A stretch of DNA of 64,000 nt from Escherichia coli (GTDB lineage: Bacteria; Pseudomonadota; Gammaproteobacteria; Enterobacterales; Enterobacteriaceae): the NCBI RefSeq assembly GCF_041248615.1, contig NZ_CP158426.1; one strand, 5' to 3'. The notes beneath the pieces are model-generated. The model was not told the DNA's origin, did no database searches, and saw only the letters and a list, made by a program, of their open reading frames with translations. This document shows positions 2,234 through 54,874 of this stretch, in pieces. Position numbers and translations under genes: made by a program. Positions within the stretch are counted from its first letter, which is position 1, and each line of letters starts with the position of its first letter.

Positions 2234-5941
<3,708 letters not shown>

Positions 5942-34907: not shown

Positions 34908-35927
34908 ATGAAAAGCATTTTAATTGAAAAACCGAATCAACTGGCAATTATCGAACGCGAAATACCTACCCCGTCAGCGGGTGAAGTACGAGTAAAAGTG
35001 AAACTTGCCGGAATTTGTGGTTCAGATAGCCATATTTATCGTGGGCATAATCCTTTTGCGAAATATCCGCGCGTCATTGGACATGAATTTTTTGGCGTCA
35101 TTGATGCAGTGGGTGAAGGCGTGGAAAGCGCCAGAGTCGGTGAACGCGTTGCTGTCGATCCGGTGGTCAGCTGTGGGCATTGCTATCCGTGCTCTATAGG
35201 TAAGCCGAACGTTTGTACAACACTGGCTGTATTAGGTGTGCACGCTGACGGTGGTTTCAGTGAATATGCCGTGGTTCCGGCAAAAAATGCGTGGAAAATT
35301 CCTGAAGCAGTGGCCGATCAATATGCGGTGATGATCGAACCTTTTACCATTGCGGCGAACGTAACCGGTCATGGTCAACCGACTGAAAATGATACCGTTC
35401 TGGTTTACGGTGCCGGTCCAATCGGCCTGACGATCGTTCAGGTATTAAAAGGCGTCTATAACGTTAAAAATGTGATTGTTGCCGATCGCATTGATGAACG
35501 ACTGGAAAAAGCGAAAGAGAGCGGGGCTGACTGGGCGATTAATAACAGCCAGACACCGCTTGGCGAGATTTTCGCTGAAAAAGGCATAAAGCCGACATTA
35601 ATTATCGATGCGGCTTGTCATCCTTCTATCCTGAAAGAGGCCGTAACTCTGGCTTCTCCAGCGGCACGTATTGTATTGATGGGCTTCTCCAGTGAACCGT
35701 CTGAAGTGATTCAGCAAGGAATTACCGGAAAAGAACTCTCTATTTTCTCTTCACGCTTAAATGCAAATAAATTCCCGGTCGTTATCGACTGGTTAAGTAA
35801 AGGGTTAATTAAACCAGAAAAATTAATTACCCATACGTTTGATTTCCAGTATGTTGCTGATGCCATTAGTTTATTTGAACAGGATCAAAAACATTGCTGC
35901 AAAGTCTTACTCACTTTTTCTGAATAA
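34908..35927 (+). CDS. rspB: Starvation-sensing protein RspB (Zn-dependent alcohol dehydrogenase family), 339 aa
   Basis: Track ORF 347 aa; start placed at MKSILIEKPNQ (ATG 34908) with TAAGGAG RBS; GHEFFG and GCG motifs. Confidence 0.92.
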   Translation: MKSILIEKPNQLAIIEREIPTPSAGEVRVKVKLAGICGSDSHIYRGHNPFAKYPRVIGHEFFGVIDAVGEGVESARVGERVAVDPVVSCGHCYPCSIGKPNVCTTLAVLGVHADGGFSEYAVVPAKNAWKIPEAVADQYAVMIEPFTIAANVTGHGQPTENDTVLVYGAGPIGLTIVQVLKGVYNVKNVIVADRIDERLEKAKESGADWAINNSQTPLGEIFAEKGIKPTLIIDAACHPSILKEAVTLASPAARIVLMGFSSEPSEVIQQGITGKELSIFSSRLNANKFPVVIDWLSKGLIKPEKLITHTFDFQYVADAISLFEQDQKHCCKVLLTFSE

Positions 35928-35984
35928 TACCAATAACGGCGAGTAAGTAGTACGCATCTTACCTCTTTTTTAGAGATAACCATT

Positions 35985-37352
35985 ATGACAATAGAAAAAC
36001 ACGAAAGAAGCACTAAGGATTTGGTGAAAGCAGCAGTATCGGGATGGCTGGGCACAGCGCTTGAATTTATGGATTTCCAGTTATATTCGCTCGGCGCAGC
36101 GTTAGTGTTTCATGAAATATTTTTTCCTGAATCATCAACGGCAATGGCGTTAATTCTGGCAATGGGAACCTACGGTGCAGGTTATGTGGCGCGTATTGTC
36201 GGAGCATTTATTTTCGGCAAAATGGGCGACAGAATCGGGCGTAAAAAAGTACTCTTTATTACCATCACCATGATGGGGATCTGTACCACCTTAATTGGTG
36301 TGTTACCGACCTATGCACAGATTGGTGTTTTTGCACCCATCTTGCTGGTGACGCTGCGTATTATTCAGGGATTGGGTGCAGGTGCGGAAATTTCCGGTGC
36401 CGGTACGATGCTGGCGGAATATGCGCCAAAAGGTAAGCGCGGAATTATCTCCTCATTTGTGGCTATGGGGACTAACTGCGGAACCTTGAGCGCAACGGCA
36501 ATCTGGGCCTTTATGTTCTTCATTCTCAGTAAAGAGGAACTGCTTGCGTGGGGATGGCGTATACCGTTCCTGGCGAGCGTTGTCGTGATGGTCTTTGCTA
36601 TCTGGTTGCGTATGAATCTGAAAGAAAGCCCGGTCTTTGAGAAGGTTAACGACAGCAACCAACCGACAGCAAAACCTGCACCTGCTGGTAGCATGTTCCA
36701 GAGCAAATCCTTCTGGCTGGCAACAGGGCTGCGTTTTGGTCAGGCTGGTAACTCCGGTTTAATTCAGACTTTCCTTGCAGGCTATTTAGTGCAGACGTTA
36801 TTGTTTAACAAAGCAATTCCAACAGATGCATTGATGATTAGTTCGATTCTCGGCTTTATGACCATTCCGTTCCTTGGTTGGTTATCCGATAAAATTGGTC
36901 GCCGGATCCCGTATATTATTATGAATACCTCCGCGATTGTGCTGGCATGGCCAATGCTTTCTATCATCGTAGATAAAAGCTATGCCTCGAGCACCATTAT
37001 GGTTGCACTGATTGTGATTCATAACTGTGCGGTGCTGGGATTATTTGCTCTGGAAAACATTACCATGGCAGAAATGTTCGGCTGTAAAAACCGCTTTACC
37101 CGGATGGCTATTTCTAAAGAAATTGGTGGTCTTATCGCTTCCGGTTTTGGTCCTATCCTGGCGGGTATTTTCTGCACCATGACGGAATCCTGGTATCCGA
37201 TCGCCATTATGATCATGGCATATTCAGTGATTGGTTTAATCTCTGCGCTGAAAATGCCAGAAGTGAAAGACCGTGATTTAAGTGCACTGGAAGATGCCGC
37301 GGAAGATCAACCGCGTGTTGTAACAGCTGCGCAACCTTCAAGAAGTCTGTAA
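35985..37352 (+). CDS. ydfJ: MFS (metabolite:H+ symporter-like) transporter, 455 aa, intact
   Basis: Track ORF 455 aa; lies directly after rspB, whereas in K-12 (from memory) this gene is disrupted by the Qin prophage. Confidence 0.82.
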   Translation: MTIEKHERSTKDLVKAAVSGWLGTALEFMDFQLYSLGAALVFHEIFFPESSTAMALILAMGTYGAGYVARIVGAFIFGKMGDRIGRKKVLFITITMMGICTTLIGVLPTYAQIGVFAPILLVTLRIIQGLGAGAEISGAGTMLAEYAPKGKRGIISSFVAMGTNCGTLSATAIWAFMFFILSKEELLAWGWRIPFLASVVVMVFAIWLRMNLKESPVFEKVNDSNQPTAKPAPAGSMFQSKSFWLATGLRFGQAGNSGLIQTFLAGYLVQTLLFNKAIPTDALMISSILGFMTIPFLGWLSDKIGRRIPYIIMNTSAIVLAWPMLSIIVDKSYASSTIMVALIVIHNCAVLGLFALENITMAEMFGCKNRFTRMAISKEIGGLIASGFGPILAGIFCTMTESWYPIAIMIMAYSVIGLISALKMPEVKDRDLSALEDAAEDQPRVVTAAQPSRSL

Positions 37353-40974: not shown

Positions 40975-43020
40975 ATGACAACAATGAATCCTTTCCTTGT
41001 GCAAAGCACACTGCCGTATCTGGCTCCCCATTTTGATCAAATTTCCAATCATCACTATCGCCCGGCATTCGATGAGGGAATGCTGCAAAAGCGGGCAGAA
41101 ATTACTGCCATCGCGCTTAACCCGCAAACGCCTGATTTCAACAATACTATTCTGGCACTGGAACAAAGCGGAGAATTACTTACCCGCGTTACCAGCGTCT
41201 TTTTTGCGATGACTGCGGCGCATACCAATGATGAATTACAGCGTCTTGATGAACAGTTTTCCGCTGAACTGGCGGAACTGGCTAATGATATCTATCTGAA
41301 CGGTGAATTATTCGCGCGGGTAGATGCTGTCTGGCAACGCCGTGAATCCCTGGGGCTTGATAGTGAATCCATCCGCCTGGTGGAGGTGATTCATCAACGT
41401 TTTGTCCTTGCCGGAGCCAAACTTGCGCAAGCTGATAAAGCAAAATTAAAAGTACTGAATACAGAAGCTGCGACCCTGACCAGCCAGTTTAACCAGCGGT
41501 TACTGGCAGCAAATAAATCCGGCGGTCTGGTTGTGAACGATATCGCGCAGCTGGCAGGAATGAGTGAACAAGAGATAGCGCTGGCGGCAGAGGCGGCTCG
41601 CGAGAAAGGTCTGGATAACAAATGGCTGATTCCGCTGCTGAATACCACCCAGCAACCAGCGCTTGCTGAACTGCGCGATCGCGCGACGCGTGAAAAACTG
41701 TTCACTGCGGGCTGGACGCGAGCGGAAAAAAATGATGCCAATGATACCCGCGCTATCATTCAACGTCTGGTGGAGATCCGTGCGCAGCAGGCGAAACTGC
41801 TTGGTTTTCCTCATTATGCCGCATGGAAAATCGCCGATCAGATGGCAAAAACACCTGAAGCAGCACTCAACTTTATGCGGGAAATTGTTCCAGCGGCGCG
41901 TCAACGTGCGAGCGATGAATTAGCCTCCATACAGGCGGTTATCGATAAGCAGCAAGGCGGGTTTAGCGCGCAGCCGTGGGACTGGGCATTTTATGCCGAA
42001 CAGGTACGGCGGGAAAAATTTGATCTTGATGAGGTGCAGCTCAAGCCATATTTTGAATTAAACACGGTGTTGAATGAAGGTGTATTCTGGACCGCGAATC
42101 AGCTCTTCGGTATTAAGTTTGTCGAACGTTTTGATATTCCTGTCTACCATCCTGACGTTCGTGTGTGGGAAATTTTTGATCATAATGGCGTGGGGCTGGC
42201 GTTATTTTACGGTGATTTCTTCGCCCGTGATTCAAAAAGCGGCGGTGCATGGATGGGCAATTTTGTTGAGCAATCAACGCTTAATGAAACGCACCCGGTA
42301 ATTTATAACGTTTGCAATTATCAGAAACCCGCTGCCGGTGAGCCTGCGTTGTTACTCTGGGATGATGTCATAACCTTATTCCATGAATTTGGTCATACGC
42401 TGCACGGCCTCTTTGCCCGCCAGCGTTATGCCACGCTTTCCGGCACCAACACGCCGCGTGATTTTGTCGAATTTCCGTCGCAAATCAACGAACACTGGGC
42501 AACGCATCCGCAGGTATTCGCTCGCTACGCCCGGCATTATCAGAGCGGGGCAGCAATGCCTGACGAACTGCAACAGAAAATGCGTAATGCCAGCCTGTTC
42601 AATAAAGGGTATGAGATGAGCGAACTGCTTAGCGCCGCACTTCTCGATATGCGCTGGCATTGCCTGGAAGAAAACGAAGCAATGCAGGATGTCGATGATT
42701 TCGAATTGCGGGCGCTGGTGGCAGAAAATATGGATCTTCCCGCTATACCGCCACGCTATCGCAGCAGTTATTTCGCCCATATTTTTGGTGGCGGATATGC
42801 CGCAGGTTATTACGCTTATCTGTGGACGCAAATGTTGGCCGATGATGGTTACCAGTGGTTTGTTGAGCAGGGCGGATTAAAGCGTGAAAATGGGCTGCGT
42901 TTTCGCGAGGCGATCCTTTCCAGAGGTAACAGCGAGGATCTGGAACGCCTGTATCGACAATGGCGCGGTAAGGCACCTCAGATTATGCCGATGCTGCAAC
43001 ATCGTGGCTTGAACGTATAA
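40975..43020 (+). CDS. dcp: Dipeptidyl carboxypeptidase II (M3 family), 681 aa
   Basis: Track ORF 703 aa; start placed at MTTMNPFLVQ (ATG 40975) with AGGAGAAG RBS; HEFGH zinc motif present. Confidence 0.93.
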   Translation: MTTMNPFLVQSTLPYLAPHFDQISNHHYRPAFDEGMLQKRAEITAIALNPQTPDFNNTILALEQSGELLTRVTSVFFAMTAAHTNDELQRLDEQFSAELAELANDIYLNGELFARVDAVWQRRESLGLDSESIRLVEVIHQRFVLAGAKLAQADKAKLKVLNTEAATLTSQFNQRLLAANKSGGLVVNDIAQLAGMSEQEIALAAEAAREKGLDNKWLIPLLNTTQQPALAELRDRATREKLFTAGWTRAEKNDANDTRAIIQRLVEIRAQQAKLLGFPHYAAWKIADQMAKTPEAALNFMREIVPAARQRASDELASIQAVIDKQQGGFSAQPWDWAFYAEQVRREKFDLDEVQLKPYFELNTVLNEGVFWTANQLFGIKFVERFDIPVYHPDVRVWEIFDHNGVGLALFYGDFFARDSKSGGAWMGNFVEQSTLNETHPVIYNVCNYQKPAAGEPALLLWDDVITLFHEFGHTLHGLFARQRYATLSGTNTPRDFVEFPSQINEHWATHPQVFARYARHYQSGAAMPDELQQKMRNASLFNKGYEMSELLSAALLDMRWHCLEENEAMQDVDDFELRALVAENMDLPAIPPRYRSSYFAHIFGGGYAAGYYAYLWTQMLADDGYQWFVEQGGLKRENGLRFREAILSRGNSEDLERLYRQWRGKAPQIMPMLQHRGLNV

Positions 43021-43031
43021 ACACCACCAAT

Positions 43032-43061
43032 GGCTGGCCTGGAGAAATCGCCAGGCCAGCC
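43032..43061 (+). terminator. Strong hairpin 12 nt after dcp stop (terminator-like, no U-tract)
   Basis: Perfect 11-bp stem GGCTGGCCTGG/CCAGGCCAGCC with 8-nt loop. Confidence 0.4.
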
Positions 43062-43384
43062 TGGTTAGAGCAGTAATTGCAGCAGCTGGGCGAGGGCAAA
43101 CCTCACCGCTAATGCTAATACCGTTTCGCAGTCGCCAGCAAAATTACTTTTTTTGTATACCCTTCCGTTATAATAATTTTCAAATTTATAAATCTGATTG
43201 TTCTGAAATATGTTTAAGACTCTTTAATCTTCTTCTTACTTTAGTGAGTAAAATTCTCTGAATATTTGACAGCTAGTTGCCTGATTTTAAATGCCTTATA
43301 ACAATTGGCAGTATTCTTATTTGTCAATTATAAAAATAGCAACCAGACTTAATAAGTCAAACCAAACGCAATTAAGGAGTCAGT

Positions 43385-43777
43385 ATGAAATTTCAGGCCA
43401 TTGTATTAGCAAGTTTTCTTGTCATGCCTTATGCGTTGGCAGATGACCAGGGCGGATTAAAACAGGATGCAGCGCCACCGCCGCCTCATGCAATAGAAGA
43501 TGGCTATCGCGGAACCGATGATGCAAAAAAAATGACCGTTGATTTCGCAAAAACCATGCATGATGGCGCTTCGGTTTCACTACGCGGTAATTTGATTTCT
43601 CACAAAGGAGAGGACCGTTACGTTTTTCGCGATAAGAGCGGTGAAATTAATGTTGTTATTCCTGCGGCAGTCTTTGATGGACGAGAAGTTCAGCCGGACC
43701 AGATGATCAACATTAGCGGCAGTCTGGATAAGAAAAGCGCGCCGGCCGTCGTTCGGGTCACTCATTTGCAGAAATAA
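43385..43777 (+). CDS. ydeI: Periplasmic OB-fold stress-resistance protein, 130 aa
   Basis: Track ORF 130 aa with signal peptide [19 protein letters not shown]; AAGGAG RBS. Confidence 0.85.
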
Positions 43778-44031
43778 AAATAAATTAGCCTGATGGCCTG
43801 AACTACTGGGCCATTAGGGTATTGGGTTATGCTATTTGTCATCCTTTTAATTGCGATAATGCAGGCTTAATTTACAGAATTAAACACTTTTTTATCTGCT
43901 GATTTTGTTTCAAATCACAATGTTATCTCAGAGATGACTCATAACTTCGGATTTCTATGAAAATATTGACGTAATTTTGCTTTTCTCCCGTTAGAATAGC
44001 GCGCACAAGGAACTGTGAAAAAGGAGTGGCA

Positions 44032-44943
44032 ATGATCAAGAAGACAACGGAAATTGATGCCATCTTGTTAAATCTCAATAAGGCTATCGATGCCCACTAC
44101 CAGTGGCTGGTAAGTATGTTTCACAGCGTGGTCGCGAGAGATGCCAGTAAGCCAGAAATAACGGATAACCATTCTTATGGACTGTGCCAGTTTGGTCGGT
44201 GGATTGATCATCTGGGGCCACTCGATAACGATGAATTACCTTATGTTCGGCTAATGGATTCTGCCCATCAACATATGCATAACTGTGGTCGGGAATTAAT
44301 GTTGGCTATTGTTGAAAATCACTGGCAGGACGCGCATTTCGACGCCTTTCAGGAAGGGTTGCTTTCTTTTACTGCGGCATTAACCGATTACAAAATTTAT
44401 TTGCTGACGATCCGTAGCAATATGGATGTTTTGACGGGATTGCCGGGTCGTCGGGTTCTTGATGAATCCTTTGATCATCAGTTACGCAACGCTGAGCCTC
44501 TGAATCTTTATTTAATGTTGTTGGATATTGACCGATTTAAATTGGTTAATGATACCTACGGGCATTTAATCGGCGATGTAGTATTACGCACCCTGGCAAC
44601 TTACTTAGCCAGTTGGACGCGCGATTACGAAACGGTTTATCGCTACGGTGGCGAAGAATTTATCATTATTGTCAAAGCGGCTAATGATGAAGAAGCATGT
44701 CGTGCAGGTATCAGAATTTGCCAGTTAGTCGATAACCATGCCATCACACATTCTGAAGGGCATATCAACATTACCGTGACAGCAGGTGTCAGTCGCGCAT
44801 TTCCTGAAGAGCCTCTGGATGTGGTCATTGGAAGAGCAGACCGGGCAATGTATGAGGGTAAGCAAACCGGAAGAAATCGCTGCATGTTTATTGACGAACA
44901 AAATGTGATTAACCGAGTTTCAGCTCCGTTTAACATTCATTGA
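44032..44943 (+). CDS. dgcZ: Zinc-sensing diguanylate cyclase DgcZ (GGDEF), 296 aa
   Basis: Track ORF 305 aa; start placed at MIKKTTEID (ATG 44032) with AAGGAG RBS; RYGGEEF active-site motif. Confidence 0.9.
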   Translation: MIKKTTEIDAILLNLNKAIDAHYQWLVSMFHSVVARDASKPEITDNHSYGLCQFGRWIDHLGPLDNDELPYVRLMDSAHQHMHNCGRELMLAIVENHWQDAHFDAFQEGLLSFTAALTDYKIYLLTIRSNMDVLTGLPGRRVLDESFDHQLRNAEPLNLYLMLLDIDRFKLVNDTYGHLIGDVVLRTLATYLASWTRDYETVYRYGGEEFIIIVKAANDEEACRAGIRICQLVDNHAITHSEGHINITVTAGVSRAFPEEPLDVVIGRADRAMYEGKQTGRNRCMFIDEQNVINRVSAPFNIH

Positions 44944-44967
44944 GAAAACTGATGCTACTGTGTCAAC

Positions 44968-45065
44968 GATCCGTTATCAGTGCAGGAAAATGCCTGTTAG
45001 CGTAAAAGCAAAACACAAATCTATCCATGCAAGCATTCACCGCCGGTTTACTGGCGGTTTTTTTT
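44968..45065 (+). ncRNA. mgrR: Candidate PhoP-dependent small RNA MgrR (~98 nt)
   Basis: Intrinsic terminator (CCGCCGG/CTGGCGG stem + T8) ends at 45065; PhoP-box-like CGTTTA-N5-CATTGA at 44927-44943 and -10-like TACTGT place a TSS near 44968, giving ~98 nt; adjacent to mgtS as I recall for K-12. Confidence 0.55.
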
Positions 45066-45140
45066 CGCCGTCATAAAAATCAGGCCCCTTGTACACAACT
45101 GTAACAAGGGGCCGGTTAGGTGAGGGATTATCTCCGTTCA

Positions 45141-45236
45141 TTAGTCATCCCATTTGTGGCTGAAATACGCGGCCAGAAAACCAGAAAATAAAATTATTCC
45201 CAGTACGGCCATAAAAACATTCATATTACCCAGCAT
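45141..45236 (-). CDS. mgtS: Small membrane protein MgtS (YneM), 31 aa
   Basis: Manual translation MLGNMNVFMAVLGIILFSGFLAAYFSHKWDD with GGAGGG RBS upstream; matches recalled MgtS sequence. Confidence 0.7.
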   Translation of the reverse strand: MLGNMNVFMAVLGIILFSGFLAAYFSHKWDD

Positions 45237-45362
45237 TATTTCCCTCCGTTTATGGTGTGGTGTGTTTCCTCGCTTACCTTAATTTTCATCTCAATGAGAA
45301 AGATATTAGCAGAGGTAACCTAAACGAAGGATGAATTAAATCTTTATTGTGTTCGACTTAAA

Positions 45363-46550
45363 TCAACAAAGCGCGGGCTGCCCCCACGGTCTTGCACGAA
45401 TTCCTTTTAACATCAGCACCCACGCAGCAATGATCACCAACGCTAAGATGATAAACAGCGAGAAAGGCGGCAGACTGGTAAGCACTATGCCACTCACTAA
45501 TGGGTTAATCGCCGCACCAAGCCAGCCTAAAGACTGAGCGGAAAAATAGCTGGCTTTCATTCCTGGCGGCGCAATATGGTCAATCAACATATACTCGCCC
45601 GGCGCATAAATGATTTCACCGACAGTAAATACCGCAGCTGACATACCCCACAATAGCAGGCTGTTGCCGGAAAAAATAAAACCAACCAGACCGATGACGA
45701 AACAGAGGGTGCCTGCTGTCATCAGCGCGCGGATGTTAGCCGGGTTAAGTCGGCGTCCCACGGAATATTGCAACGTAACTACCATGGCAGCATTAACCGG
45801 AAGAACAACCGCAACCACCTTTTCGGCAAAATCACCATCAGCAATCACCATCACATATTGTGAAATGCATGAAGCAAATGCGCCGCTAACAAAGGAAGCC
45901 AGAAAACCAGAGCAGGTAAACCACAACAGTGCTTTATCTTGTAATAAAACTTTCGGCGACCAGACACTGCCTGTTTCCGTGGCGATGATTTTCTCGCTGC
46001 GCTTTACCCAAATTTGAATGAAAAGCATGGGAAACGCGGAACAGATAGCTGCCAGCCAGAAGGGCAGATTGATGCTCTGCATCACCAACAGCGTGCCGAG
46101 CGGCGGACCGATGGTCCAGCCAATGTTTAGCATGGTGTAGTTGATTGAGAAGATTTTCGTTTTGCTGGTGGACGAAAGATTGTCGGCAAACCAGGCTTTC
46201 AACACGGTAGCAAAAACGGAATAGGCGCAGTTAATAAGGGCAAAAAAGAGCACCACCAGCGTCACGTTATTCACTAAAGGAATGGCAATAAAACCACTGG
46301 CGAAGGCGGTAATTGCCAGTAACATATAGCGTTTCTTGTCGAACTTATCCGCCAGGATACCAAAACCGAGGCTAAAAACGACGCCAATAGTGAGCGCAAT
46401 TGTCATCGCATAACCGATTAGATTGACACTCAGGTTGTACTGGCGACTCAAGTAAATGGTCATAAACGGCAGCGTAGCGCCGCGTCCGATGGTTAATAAC
46501 AACGACGAGGTAAGAAGGGCGCTGGTAGAGCGTCGTAGGGATAAGTTCAT
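45363..46550 (-). CDS. ydeE: MFS transporter, 395 aa
   Basis: Track ORF 395 aa, 12-TM MFS. Confidence 0.88.
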   Translation of the reverse strand: MNLSLRRSTSALLTSSLLLTIGRGATLPFMTIYLSRQYNLSVNLIGYAMTIALTIGVVFSLGFGILADKFDKKRYMLLAITAFASGFIAIPLVNNVTLVVLFFALINCAYSVFATVLKAWFADNLSSTSKTKIFSINYTMLNIGWTIGPPLGTLLVMQSINLPFWLAAICSAFPMLFIQIWVKRSEKIIATETGSVWSPKVLLQDKALLWFTCSGFLASFVSGAFASCISQYVMVIADGDFAEKVVAVVLPVNAAMVVTLQYSVGRRLNPANIRALMTAGTLCFVIGLVGFIFSGNSLLLWGMSAAVFTVGEIIYAPGEYMLIDHIAPPGMKASYFSAQSLGWLGAAINPLVSGIVLTSLPPFSLFIILALVIIAAWVLMLKGIRARPWGQPALC

Positions 46551-47649: not shown

Positions 47650-47693
47650 ACGCACAGAATGTGATGTCAGCACTCTGTGCGTCTGCTTTTATC
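47650..47693 (+). terminator. Rho-independent terminator of eamA; island-side regulator stop codon lies inside its T-tract
   Basis: Stem CGCACAGA/TCTGTGCG with 15-nt loop followed by TCTGCTTTTATC. Confidence 0.6.
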
Positions 47694-48387
47694 GCGGGAA
47701 AAAGTACTTTACCTGGAACTCGAAAATATTGCTGTAAAGTAACGAATAATCCAGCGGAATAGAGTTACTGTCCACAGCCTGGGTCTGAATTTTAAGTATG
47801 GGATCCCGTGGGCTGATCCGTAAAATACTGGCGATTTCTGGGGTAGGAAAAGTAGGGGAGAAAGTTTCAAAGGTGCCAATGATTTTGATCCCGCATTCGT
47901 TCTCAATATACGAAAATTTGGATTTTTGCATATGTGCTACGGTTAAATCAGGAAAACGTGCCACTGACATCCACGTTTCTTCTAATTGTGCTGCATTATC
48001 CTCAATGAATCGCAGTCTCTTTATGTAATAAACCTGCTCACCAGTCACTAAATTCAGCTCAGTCGCAATAGGGGGAGAAGCATCCTGCACTTCAAATTTC
48101 ATAATCTGACTTCCTGCCTCCTTGCCGCTTTTATGCGCAATTTCACTGAAGCTGTTCATGTGATCAATGTGTGCAACAAAATTCTTTTTTTGAATATATG
48201 TTCCTGAACCATGCTTTCTATGAATAATTCCTTCGCCTTCCAGCAAGGATAATGCCTTACGCAGGGTATTACGCGAAACATTATAACGAACAGCGAGTTC
48301 AGCTTCTGACGGCAACAAATCACCAACATGCCATGAATAGCCATTGATCTCGGATTTAAGTAAGCGGGCAATCTTTTGAAAAATCAC
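47689..48387 (-). CDS. GntR/HutC-family transcriptional regulator with UTRA effector domain, 232 aa (bgcR-like), GTG start
   Basis: Track ORF 232 aa; N-terminal GntR HTH (LPSEAELAVRYNVSRNTLRKALSLLEGEGII) ; divergent from the PTS operon. Confidence 0.85.
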   Translation of the reverse strand: MIFQKIARLLKSEINGYSWHVGDLLPSEAELAVRYNVSRNTLRKALSLLEGEGIIHRKHGSGTYIQKKNFVAHIDHMNSFSEIAHKSGKEAGSQIMKFEVQDASPPIATELNLVTGEQVYYIKRLRFIEDNAAQLEETWMSVARFPDLTVAHMQKSKFSYIENECGIKIIGTFETFSPTFPTPEIASILRISPRDPILKIQTQAVDSNSIPLDYSLLYSNIFEFQVKYFFPR

Positions 48388-48502
48388 TTTTGCACCTTTT
48401 AAGAGCCATTGAAAACAAGGAGTTGAGTCCTGATTGGTTTATCGTATGGTCGAGTCGTTTAATTATCACCCTGATGTTGAACAACTTTAGTGCTGTATTA
48501 CT

Positions 48503-48518
48503 GTGATCAATGTACCAG
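48503..48518. promoter_or_regulatory. Candidate CRP site in the PTS operon promoter
   Basis: TGTGA-TCAATG-TACCA (8/10 to TGTGA-N6-TCACA); a TATGAT -10-like hexamer at 48539-48544 would place it near -41.5. Confidence 0.3.
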
Positions 48519-48560
48519 GACGTATAGCTACTGCGGGATATGATATTTACACAATGTAAT

Positions 48561-48574
48561 CTGTTATATACCAG
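48561..48574. promoter_or_regulatory. Candidate HutC-type operator (imperfect palindrome) immediately upstream of EIIB RBS
   Basis: CTGTTATATACCAG resembles GT-N-TA-N-AC style HutC-family operators; overlaps predicted 5' UTR. Confidence 0.25.
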
Positions 48575-48585
48575 TAAGGGAAAAT

Positions 48586-48897
48586 ATGAAAAAGATATTG
48601 TTAGTTTGCGCTGCGGGCATGTCAACCAGTATGCTGGTTAAACGTATGATTGATCATGCTAACGCTATTTCACTTGAAGTTAATATTTCCGCATTGGCGA
48701 TTGCAGAGGCTAAAGGGAAAATTAAAAATAACGAAGTTGACGTTGTTTTACTTGGCCCGCAAGTTCGCTTTCAGAAACCAGAGATTGAAGCTGTTGCACA
48801 GGGGAAAATGCCTGTAGCTGTTATCGAGATGAAAGACTATGGCACCATGAACGGACAGGCAGTTCTTGAATTTGCGATGAAACTACTGCAAGAGTAA
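48586..48897 (+). CDS. PTS lactose/cellobiose-family EIIB component, 103 aa (bgcE-like)
   Basis: Track ORF 103 aa MKKILLVCAAGMSTSMLV... with phosphorylatable Cys in LLVCAAGMSTS motif. Confidence 0.9.
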   Translation: MKKILLVCAAGMSTSMLVKRMIDHANAISLEVNISALAIAEAKGKIKNNEVDVVLLGPQVRFQKPEIEAVAQGKMPVAVIEMKDYGTMNGQAVLEFAMKLLQE

Positions 48898-49010
48898 GAA
48901 TCTAATATTATTAAACTATTACCTGAACTAACTTTTCACACATCATAAAATGGATATGGCATACATGCTTTATTGGGATGTATAAATATCCAGAACAACA
49001 GGTATAAAAA

Positions 49011-50333
49011 ATGGGATTAATGACCTCATTCGAACGTGGAATGGAACGTTTTCTTGTTCCAGTTGCTATCAAGTTAAACTCACAAAAACATGTTGCAGCG
49101 GTGAGAGATGGATTCGTTTTTACGTTTCCAATTATCATGGCAAGCTCATTAATTATATTAATTAACTTTGCCATATTATCGCCCGACGGCTTTATTGCCG
49201 GGCTGCTGCATCTGAACCGCGTTTTCCCCAACCTTGAAAAAGCACAAGCTATTTTTACTCCGGTAATGAATGGCTCTGTAAATATCATGTCAATTATGAT
49301 TGCTTTCCTGGTCGCCAGAAATATGGCGATTAGCTATGAGCAAGATGATCTTTTATGCGGATTAACGGCAATAGGAGCATTTTTTATTGTTTATACGCCA
49401 TATCAGATGATAGATGGGCAAGCATTCCTGACGACCAAATATCTCGGCGCACAGGGGTTGTTTGTTGCTGTTATCGTTGCATTAATCACCAGTGAAATAT
49501 TTTGTCGCTTAGCTCGAAACCCAAAAATCACCATAACGATGCCGGCAGCTGTACCTCCTGCGGTATCGCGTTCATTTAAAGTTTTATTGCCAATATTTTT
49601 TGTCATGGTGTTCTTTTCCGCACTTAATTATTGCCTGACACTGATATCCCCGGCAGGATTAAACGATCTCATTTACACATTAATCCAGACGCCGCTCAAA
49701 CATATGGGAACGAATATCTTTGCGGTAATTATCCTGGGGGCTGTGGGTAATTTCCTGTGGGTGCTGGGGATCCACGGACCTAATACCACCTCGGCAATTC
49801 GAGAAACTGTTTTTTCTGAGGCTAATCTGGAGAATCTCTCCTGGGCCGCTCAACACGGCACTACCTGGGGCGCGCCATATCCGATTACCTGGACTTCTAT
49901 TAATGATGCATTCGCCAACTGCGGCGGTTCAGGTATGACGTTGGGGTTATTGTTGGCTATTTTTATCGCGTCTAAGCGTGCGGAATACCGTGATCTGGCA
50001 AAAATGTCGTTTATCCCCGGTATTTTCAATATCAATGAACCGATAATGTTCGGCCTTCCTATTGTACTTAACCCCATCATGATGGTGCCGTTTATTCTGG
50101 TTCCCATTGTTAACTGTGCCATTGGTTACTTCTTTGTTTCGATGGAAATTATTCCACCGGTTGCTTATGCCGTGCCCTGGACTACGCCCGGACCTTTAAT
50201 TGCTTTCCTCGGAACCGGGGGAAACTGGTTGGCGTTACTGGTGGGTTTTTTATGTTTAGGTGTGGCGACAATGATCTATTTACCTTTTGTTATTGCCGCC
50301 AACAAGGTCAATAACATGACAACTAACGGATAA
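49011..50333 (+). CDS. PTS lactose/cellobiose-family EIIC permease, 440 aa (bgcF-like)
   Basis: Track ORF 440 aa polytopic membrane protein with EIIC-type layout. Confidence 0.88.
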   Translation: MGLMTSFERGMERFLVPVAIKLNSQKHVAAVRDGFVFTFPIIMASSLIILINFAILSPDGFIAGLLHLNRVFPNLEKAQAIFTPVMNGSVNIMSIMIAFLVARNMAISYEQDDLLCGLTAIGAFFIVYTPYQMIDGQAFLTTKYLGAQGLFVAVIVALITSEIFCRLARNPKITITMPAAVPPAVSRSFKVLLPIFFVMVFFSALNYCLTLISPAGLNDLIYTLIQTPLKHMGTNIFAVIILGAVGNFLWVLGIHGPNTTSAIRETVFSEANLENLSWAAQHGTTWGAPYPITWTSINDAFANCGGSGMTLGLLLAIFIASKRAEYRDLAKMSFIPGIFNINEPIMFGLPIVLNPIMMVPFILVPIVNCAIGYFFVSMEIIPPVAYAVPWTTPGPLIAFLGTGGNWLALLVGFLCLGVATMIYLPFVIAANKVNNMTTNG

Positions 50334-50354
50334 TCCCATTTACACAGGAAGGAG

Positions 50355-50672
50355 ATGTTGATGTTTGCAGATGAAGAACTTGTTATGGAGTTACTGATCA
50401 ACGCGGGACAGGCACGTTCTGATGCGATGGAAGCCATACGTTGTGCCGGGCAAAAAGACTGGCAGGGCGCAACTCAGCTAATGGCCAGTTCGGAATTAGC
50501 CTGTCTTCAGGCACATAAGATTCAGACCGCGTTAATTAGTCAGGATGAAGGTTGTGGCAAAATAGAAGTTAATTTAATTCTGGTTCATGCACAGGATCAT
50601 TTGATGAATGCAATATTATGCCAGGATTTAGCCAGGGAAATTATTTCATTAAGAAAAGAGCTCCATGCCTGA
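50355..50672 (+). CDS. PTS lactose/cellobiose-family EIIA component, 105 aa (bgcI-like)
   Basis: Track ORF 105 aa, all-helical EIIA-lac type with conserved His in VHAQDHLM; AGGAAGGAG RBS. Confidence 0.9.
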   Translation: MLMFADEELVMELLINAGQARSDAMEAIRCAGQKDWQGATQLMASSELACLQAHKIQTALISQDEGCGKIEVNLILVHAQDHLMNAILCQDLAREIISLRKELHA

Positions 50673-50676
50673 TTTT

Positions 50677-50702
50677 TTCCTCCAGTGCGATAGCTGGAGG
50701 AA
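50677..50702 (+). other. Intra-operon stem-loop between EIIA and porin genes
   Basis: Perfect 9-bp stem TTCCTCCAG/CTGGAGGAA, 8-nt loop, preceded by T6 and followed by AUUAUUACACUCUU, ending 26 nt before porin ATG. Confidence 0.45.
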
Positions 50703-50724
50703 ATTATTACACTCTTAAGGATAA

Positions 50725-54845
<4,121 letters not shown>

Positions 54846-54874
54846 TGAGACTTCAGGAAGATATTACGGAGATA

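Follow-up and report, generated by a model that had tools for sequence, protein, structure and literature searches.

A 475-bp deletion scar in place of ydeJ (rdsA) between dcp and ydeI, shared by one third of complete Escherichia coli genomes

YdeJ is one of the three PncC/CinA paralogues of E. coli; it is reported to carry substitutions at catalytic positions and to have no NMN deamidase activity (PMC3855486). In Salmonella, the ydeJ promoter is repressed by negative supercoiling in vivo as well as in vitro, and deletion of the gene leaves the DNA more negatively supercoiled, hence its new name rdsA (PMC7387798). The locus described here retains the orthologous 3′ end of this single-domain CinA/PncC family gene, which is known as b1537 in K-12 and as STM14_1830 in Salmonella. 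The lost gene codes for a catalytically inactive PncC paralogue, for which damping of negative supercoiling has been shown in Salmonella. Intact E. coli YdeJ matches both Pfam CinA (PF02464) and NCBIfam NF002972, and its closest solved structure is PDB 5KOL (E = 9e-109), deposited as 'Uncharacterized protein'.

The product name of YdeJ differs among databases. RefSeq/PGAP and the NCBIfam equivalog NF002972 use '2-oxo-tetronate isomerase', and the K-12 record uses 'PF02464 family protein YdeJ'. In the literature searched, b2739 is the E. coli protein characterised as 2-oxo-tetronate isomerase (EC 5.3.1.35; PMC12506659), and the enzyme goes by the name OtnI (PMC12994016). For YdeJ the isomerase name looks like a misnomer that belongs to the unrelated YgbM/OtnI (b2739), and metabolic inference from it would mislead.

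The dcp–ydeI interval and the ydeJ remnant

We analysed a 64-kb stretch of E. coli DNA, hereafter called the window. It is 100% identical to positions 2627672–2691671 of the chromosome of E. coli NRZ14408 (NZ_LT599825.1), which the title of its genome paper presents as a clinical isolate resistant to carbapenem and colistin (PMC5365728). RefSeq gives the gene order around the interval as rspR, ydfG, dcp, a partial pseudogene, ydeI, dgcZ, mgtT, mgtS and ydeE. The features of the locus, in window coordinates, are as follows.

40975–43020, plus strand: intact dcp, encoding peptidyl-dipeptidase Dcp, to the left of the scar (ORF list; RefSeq annotation of NZ_LT599825.1; ATG and TAA checked)
43026–43065, no strand: G+C-rich hairpin between the convergent stops of dcp and the ydeJ remnant, putative shared bidirectional terminator (fold)
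43065–43145, minus strand: 3′ remnant of ydeJ (rdsA), 26 codons plus stop (tblastn; translation; RefSeq pseudo-CDS 'missing N-terminus')
43143–43144, no strand: deletion junction, CAGCAAAA / TTACTTTT (alignments including mafft; 60-bp junction probe)
43144–43384, plus strand: 241 bp that survive of the divergent ydeJ–ydeI spacer and today lie upstream of ydeI (alignment with the K-12 spacer)
43385–43777, plus strand: intact ydeI, encoding a periplasmic OB-fold protein of YdeI/OmdA type, to the right of the scar (Pfam, NCBIfam and RefSeq; BOF PF04076, E = 4.9e-41; NF007471, 258.9 bits against a cut-off of 179)

The TAA stop of dcp occupies 43018–43020 and the ATG of ydeI begins at 43385, so the interval between them (43021–43384) is exactly the 364 bp given in an earlier note on this DNA. 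That note had also stated that neither strand holds an ORF of 60 aa or more, and the only ORFs touching the interval on either strand are indeed 38, 49 and 51 aa long. The K-12 gene order that it gave (ydeI b1536, ydeJ b1537, dcp b1538) agrees with the K-12 record. Its proposal that ydeJ is absent was compared with K-12 MG1655, where the dcp–ydeI gap is not 364 bp but 837 bp and contains the 519-bp ydeJ, and with a tblastn search of the window, which returned nothing beyond the C-terminal remnant (best other match, E = 0.3); the absence reading withstood both. A blastn search of the window with the missing 475 bp likewise gave no match. The proposal holds for a functional gene but not for a clean absence, since the last 26 codons and the stop of ydeJ survive at 43065–43145.

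By tblastn, YdeJ residues 147–162 match window positions 43145–43098. The remnant translates to NFAGDCETVLALAVRFALAQLLQLLL followed by the stop, as against HFAGDCETVLALAVRFALAQLLQLLL and stop in K-12, and the two are identical except for the junction codon; the peptide is identical to residues 148–172 of K-12 YdeJ. True homology to ydeJ covers the 79 bp from 43065 to 43143, and the first annotated codon crosses the junction. Position, strand, frame and stop codon are all those of the intact gene. Of a full-length protein of about 172 aa, with its CinA domain (PF02464) at residues 19–170, only residues 147–172 are encoded, and the GTG start with the 35 bp upstream of it lies within the missing segment. 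No YdeJ can be made from the window locus, and the remnant itself is presumably silent.

Alignment to two intact alleles, K-12 and strain GDSC2239PM (locus L002), placed a single 475-bp gap in the window. Intact ydeJ occupies 3264–3782 of L002 and the missing segment 3343–3817, which takes in 440 bp of the 519-bp ydeJ together with the 35 bp that precede the GTG start. The lost coding part consists of codons 1–146 and two bases of codon 147 (85% of the CDS). The breakpoints share 1 bp (T) of microhomology, which leaves the placement of the junction ambiguous by 1 bp. At the 43143/43144 junction we found neither foreign bases nor the remnant of an IS, and no inverted repeat or duplicated target site either; nothing there has the form of an IS- or transposon-mediated deletion. 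Because only one base is shared and foreign sequence is lacking, we infer a simple illegitimate deletion as the molecular mechanism rather than an IS-mediated one.

We therefore consider the 364-bp interval, with a probability of about 95%, to be the scar of one illegitimate (non-homologous, non-IS) 475-bp deletion in an ancestor of many E. coli. In the proposed course of events, a single deletion would have removed the first 440 bp of ydeJ/rdsA together with the 35 bp upstream of its start, and with the latter the ribosome-binding site and probably the -10 element as well. What remains is the putative convergent terminator hairpin of dcp and ydeJ, a dead 79-bp tail of ydeJ and 241 bp of the divergent spacer. 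None of the observations speaks against the deletion as such.

Frequency, nested deletion and origin of the scar allele

As a frequency sample we used 5,426 complete E. coli genomes, which were searched with a 60-bp junction probe (blastn, word size 11), counting only contiguous matches. The ydeJ-scar junction was contiguous in 1,799 genomes (33%), and another 3,594 matched only the left 31 bp of the probe. With megablast the same probe undercounts, giving full matches in only 151 genomes, which we attribute to the 28-base seed, to low-complexity masking of the A/T runs and to two left-arm SNPs in most deletion alleles. The deleted 475-bp segment was present in 3,618 genomes. Together, the junction-bearing and the segment-bearing genomes number 5,417, exactly as many as have the dcp 3′ end, so that practically all ydeJ-less E. 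coli carry the same scar; short of strict proof, this equality also suggests that no junction-bearing genome holds ydeJ elsewhere. The scar is real and not an artefact of assembly or annotation, and an assembly collapse is very unlikely here given 1,799 independent complete assemblies. A 'strain-specific deletion', one of the two options in the earlier note, is thus right as to the deletion and wrong as to its restriction to one strain.

Among the named strains, K-12 and O157:H7 strains have an intact ydeJ, and the allele of the window is also that of 042 and IAI39. CFT073 and one ST131 isolate carry the ydeJ junction and flanks of the window, identical in both, plus a second deletion of 506 alignment columns (window 43189–43692). 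The second deletion removes 196 bp upstream of ydeI, with its promoter, and ydeI codons 1–102, whereas ydeI is intact in the window. It leaves the last 90 bp of the gene (3385–3474 of locus L003 and 36258–36347 of locus L005, both outside the window) and is flanked by 4–5 bp of TTCA microhomology. Its junction was contiguous in 1,039 of the 5,426 genomes. Subtracting these from the 1,799 yields about 760 window-like genomes, so that about 66.7% of the sample is intact, about 14% window-like and 19.1% doubly deleted. An independent estimate agrees, as the ydeI 5′ region was found in 4,371 genomes; the interval itself was matched at 95% identity or more in 765. With the first deletion only, the window lacks YdeJ/RdsA and keeps ydeI; in one sub-lineage, that of CFT073 and ST131, the second deletion would additionally have taken the ydeI promoter and codons 1–102. 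YdeI/OmdA is needed for antimicrobial-peptide resistance in Salmonella. With ydeJ and ydeI both truncated, the CFT073 and ST131 lineages are without both neighbours.

RefSeq already annotates the ydeJ fragment as a pseudogene in NRZ14408, 042, IAI39, CFT073 and ST131. The fragment has what a pseudogene remnant should have, namely syntenic 3′-end homology on the same strand with the same stop, a complete gene in outgroups and breakpoints that are identical between carriers. It is exactly one of the E. coli gene remnants that PGAP flags as 'incomplete; partial in the middle of a contig; missing N-terminus', and compared with the usual members of that class there is nothing unusual about it; the only extra is the nested second deletion. 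A literature search found nothing tying ydeJ to phylogroup. These results indicate that the loss of ydeJ is an ancient, common, ordinary and already annotated gene-loss polymorphism.

We then compared five deletion alleles, those of the window, 042, IAI39, CFT073 and ST131, by mafft. The 475-column gap was identical to the base in all five, and each has a T in place of the A of intact alleles at the site 29 bp to the left of the junction. In 042, IAI39, CFT073 and ST131 the remnant shows the amino-acid changes VL>AF, R>K, LA>PT and L>R, as might be expected of dead sequence under relaxed constraint. In the window the remnant hardly differs from the intact K-12 allele, whereas several derived substitutions are common to the other four deletion alleles. 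This pattern suggests either recombination in the flanks or an early-branching haplotype, and it hints at mosaicism. Over the columns common to all alleles the window interval is closest to 042 (97.4%); in the ydeI 5′ region the window is 99.0% identical to 042 and, marginally closer, 99.2% identical to IAI39.

The distribution over lineages is where a recurrent deletion has to be weighed, in which a hotspot would have given the same loss more than once, in separate lineages or in this strain alone. We take K-12 to belong to phylogroup A, O157:H7 to E, 042 to D, IAI39 to F, and CFT073 and ST131 to B2; the comparison covers these few named strains, with 042 as the phylogroup D reference. On that assignment the allele occurs in three phylogroups (D, F and B2) that do not always form one clade. 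Some rooted trees place phylogroup D nearer to A/B1/E than to B2/F, and if D does lie there, strict vertical inheritance is insufficient and recombination or ancestral polymorphism is needed. Recurrence nevertheless seems very improbable to us, as the breakpoints are base-identical in five alleles with a mere 1 bp of microhomology to guide repeated events, the linked T is common to all of them, and 1,799 genomes give a contiguous match to the junction probe. The shared T and the identical breakpoints fit a scar that arose once and whose flanks later underwent some homologous recombination, and given the flank pattern the distribution of the scar allele need not be purely vertical. After one ancestral deletion, the scar allele would have come down to about one third of present E. 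coli by inheritance, perhaps with some transfer through homologous recombination as well.

The surviving interval and other features of the window

The earlier note described the interval as a strong hairpin after dcp followed by AT-rich, promoter-like sequence. The hairpin was borne out: 43026–43065 folds at -30.6 kcal/mol, against -18.2 ± 2.9 kcal/mol in shuffled sequences (z = -4.2), around a perfect G+C-rich core of 11 bp in which 43032–43042 pair with 43051–43061. It is present in every aligned allele, with a few base differences between them. As for an intrinsic terminator, the G+C-rich stem-loop is there and a T-run directly after the stem is not. A terminator scan made no call at 43026–43065 on either strand; the plus-strand tail reads TGGTTAGAG, and it is the lack of a canonical T-run on this strand that leaves the hairpin uncalled by such a simple scan. 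From its position between two convergent stops, the hairpin may serve as a shared bidirectional terminator.

The sequence from 43144 to 43384 corresponds to the K-12 spacer minus the 35 bp nearest ydeJ. It is AT-rich as described (27% GC, against 49% for the whole window), but 'promoter-like' fared less well, as a sigma-70 consensus scan found no plus-strand site, and two minus-strand sites where 1.5 were expected from shuffles. Since the scan did not exceed chance, we claim no position for the ydeI promoter, and the region counts as promoter-like by its homology to the K-12 spacer, not by motif statistics. The 241 bp are 97–99% identical to other alleles. The surviving spacer would still serve as the ydeI upstream region, and ydeI is probably still expressed in the window strain, presumably without change, judging from sequence conservation. 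The ydeI–ydeJ spacer is a reported binding target of RcdA (PMC3535384). For the RcdA box TTGTnnACA we found only sites with one mismatch; one in K-12 falls within the deleted 35 bp, and a different one occurs in the window at 43153.

A 49-aa ORF (43112–43261, plus strand) crosses the junction and is a by-product of the deletion; neither the promoter scan nor Rfam gave evidence of its expression. Instead of being an inert scar, the interval could have gained a new function through this ORF or through a small RNA, considering that the deletion has fused sequence on either side of the junction into one ORF and that the region is kept in about 760 genomes. We regard such a gain as highly implausible. 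The ORF is short, AT-rich and mostly made of old spacer, no promoter-like site was found on the plus strand, and the only Rfam match within 42500–46000 is STnc560, further downstream. Moreover, the B2-type allele loses the distal part of the ORF (window 43189 onward), so that it is unconserved among carriers of the deletion. An inert scar is the reading that we retain.

Several further observations were made outside the interval. STnc560, an Hfq-binding sRNA, matches at 44934–45147 on the plus strand just downstream of dgcZ (Rfam, 281.9 bits, E = 1e-65), overlying the position of the K-12 sRNA mgrR, antisense to the end of mgtT. At the 3′ end of dgcZ (44920–44943), the usual stop TAA, found in K-12, 042, IAI39 and CFT073, is TCA in the window. 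DgcZ is consequently 303 rather than 296 aa long, with a 7-residue tail (SAPFNIH), and the extension enters the start of the STnc560 match. Between eamA and marB (47689–54848) lies an island encoding a GntR regulator, PTS IIB/IIC/IIA, a carbohydrate porin and a glycoside hydrolase, missing in K-12 and present in CFT073 and IAI39. Its family 1 glycosyl hydrolase, annotated as 6-phospho-beta-glucosidase in the latter two strains, is split in the window by an IS3-family element (53100–54328). At the rspB–ydfJ junction (35927–35985) the two genes adjoin with no prophage between them, as in CFT073, and E. coli 042 has a large Qin-like prophage and a truncated ydfJ at this site.

Direction of the event and its meaning for E. 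coli

To establish polarity, we scanned one-genome-per-species contigs with a degenerate pattern for the YdeJ motif TTAESCTGGKLA. The scan identified 16 loci, including six from Enterobacterales (two subspecies of Salmonella, two species of Silvania, Intestinirhabdus alba and one Enterobacter sp.) but not a single one from another Escherichia species; this is enough for polarity, not for dating the event within the genus. In Salmonella enterica subsp. diarizonae (L020), S. enterica subsp. arizonae (L015) and I. alba (L019), dcp, ydeJ and ydeI are adjacent and in the same order. Both Salmonella loci also agree with intact E. coli in how the three genes are oriented relative to one another; I. 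alba has ydeJ and ydeI divergent as in E. coli, with the dcp match on the other strand relative to them. This outgroup synteny indicates that presence of ydeJ is ancestral and that the window state is a deletion. The structure of the protein points the same way. Intact YdeJ is a single CinA domain (PF02464, residues 19–170, E = 2.7e-47) and the break falls at residues 146/147; a split domain whose tail stays in place and in frame argues for deletion rather than insertion.

The earlier note's other option, an insertion in K-12, would mean that ydeJ entered an originally short spacer in K-12-like strains and that the window shows the ancestral state. It can appeal to the existence of two states and to the frequency of the ydeJ-less one (33%), but we reject it as next to impossible on the ydeJ remnant (26 codons plus stop, in frame) and the dcp–ydeJ–ydeI order in S. 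arizonae, S. diarizonae and I. alba, together with a breakpoint that cuts the CinA domain and ends of the 475 bp that are free of mobile-element features.

Taken alone, the finding has little importance; it closes the question of the short interval, which stems from a real and ancient deletion. A wider biological reading, to which we give only a slender chance, is that one third of E. coli would naturally be without RdsA/YdeJ, in Salmonella a negative-feedback regulator of supercoiling, including 042, IAI39, CFT073 and ST131, the tested representatives of lineages rich in extraintestinal pathogens, and that the B2-type strains (CFT073, ST131) would then have lost the adjacent YdeI, a stress and antimicrobial-peptide protein, in a second nested step. 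If the role of RdsA is the same in E. coli, the presumed physiological effect of the loss would be that these lineages have a different supercoiling set-point or have compensated for it. Studies of YdeJ/RdsA in K-12 or Salmonella do not carry over to about 33% of E. coli. The two nested junctions, at 43143/43144 and at TTCA in the CFT073/ST131-type, are simple markers of the lineages that carry them, and, if this reading is true, both scars would serve as clean markers, typable by PCR, for deep lineages of E. coli.
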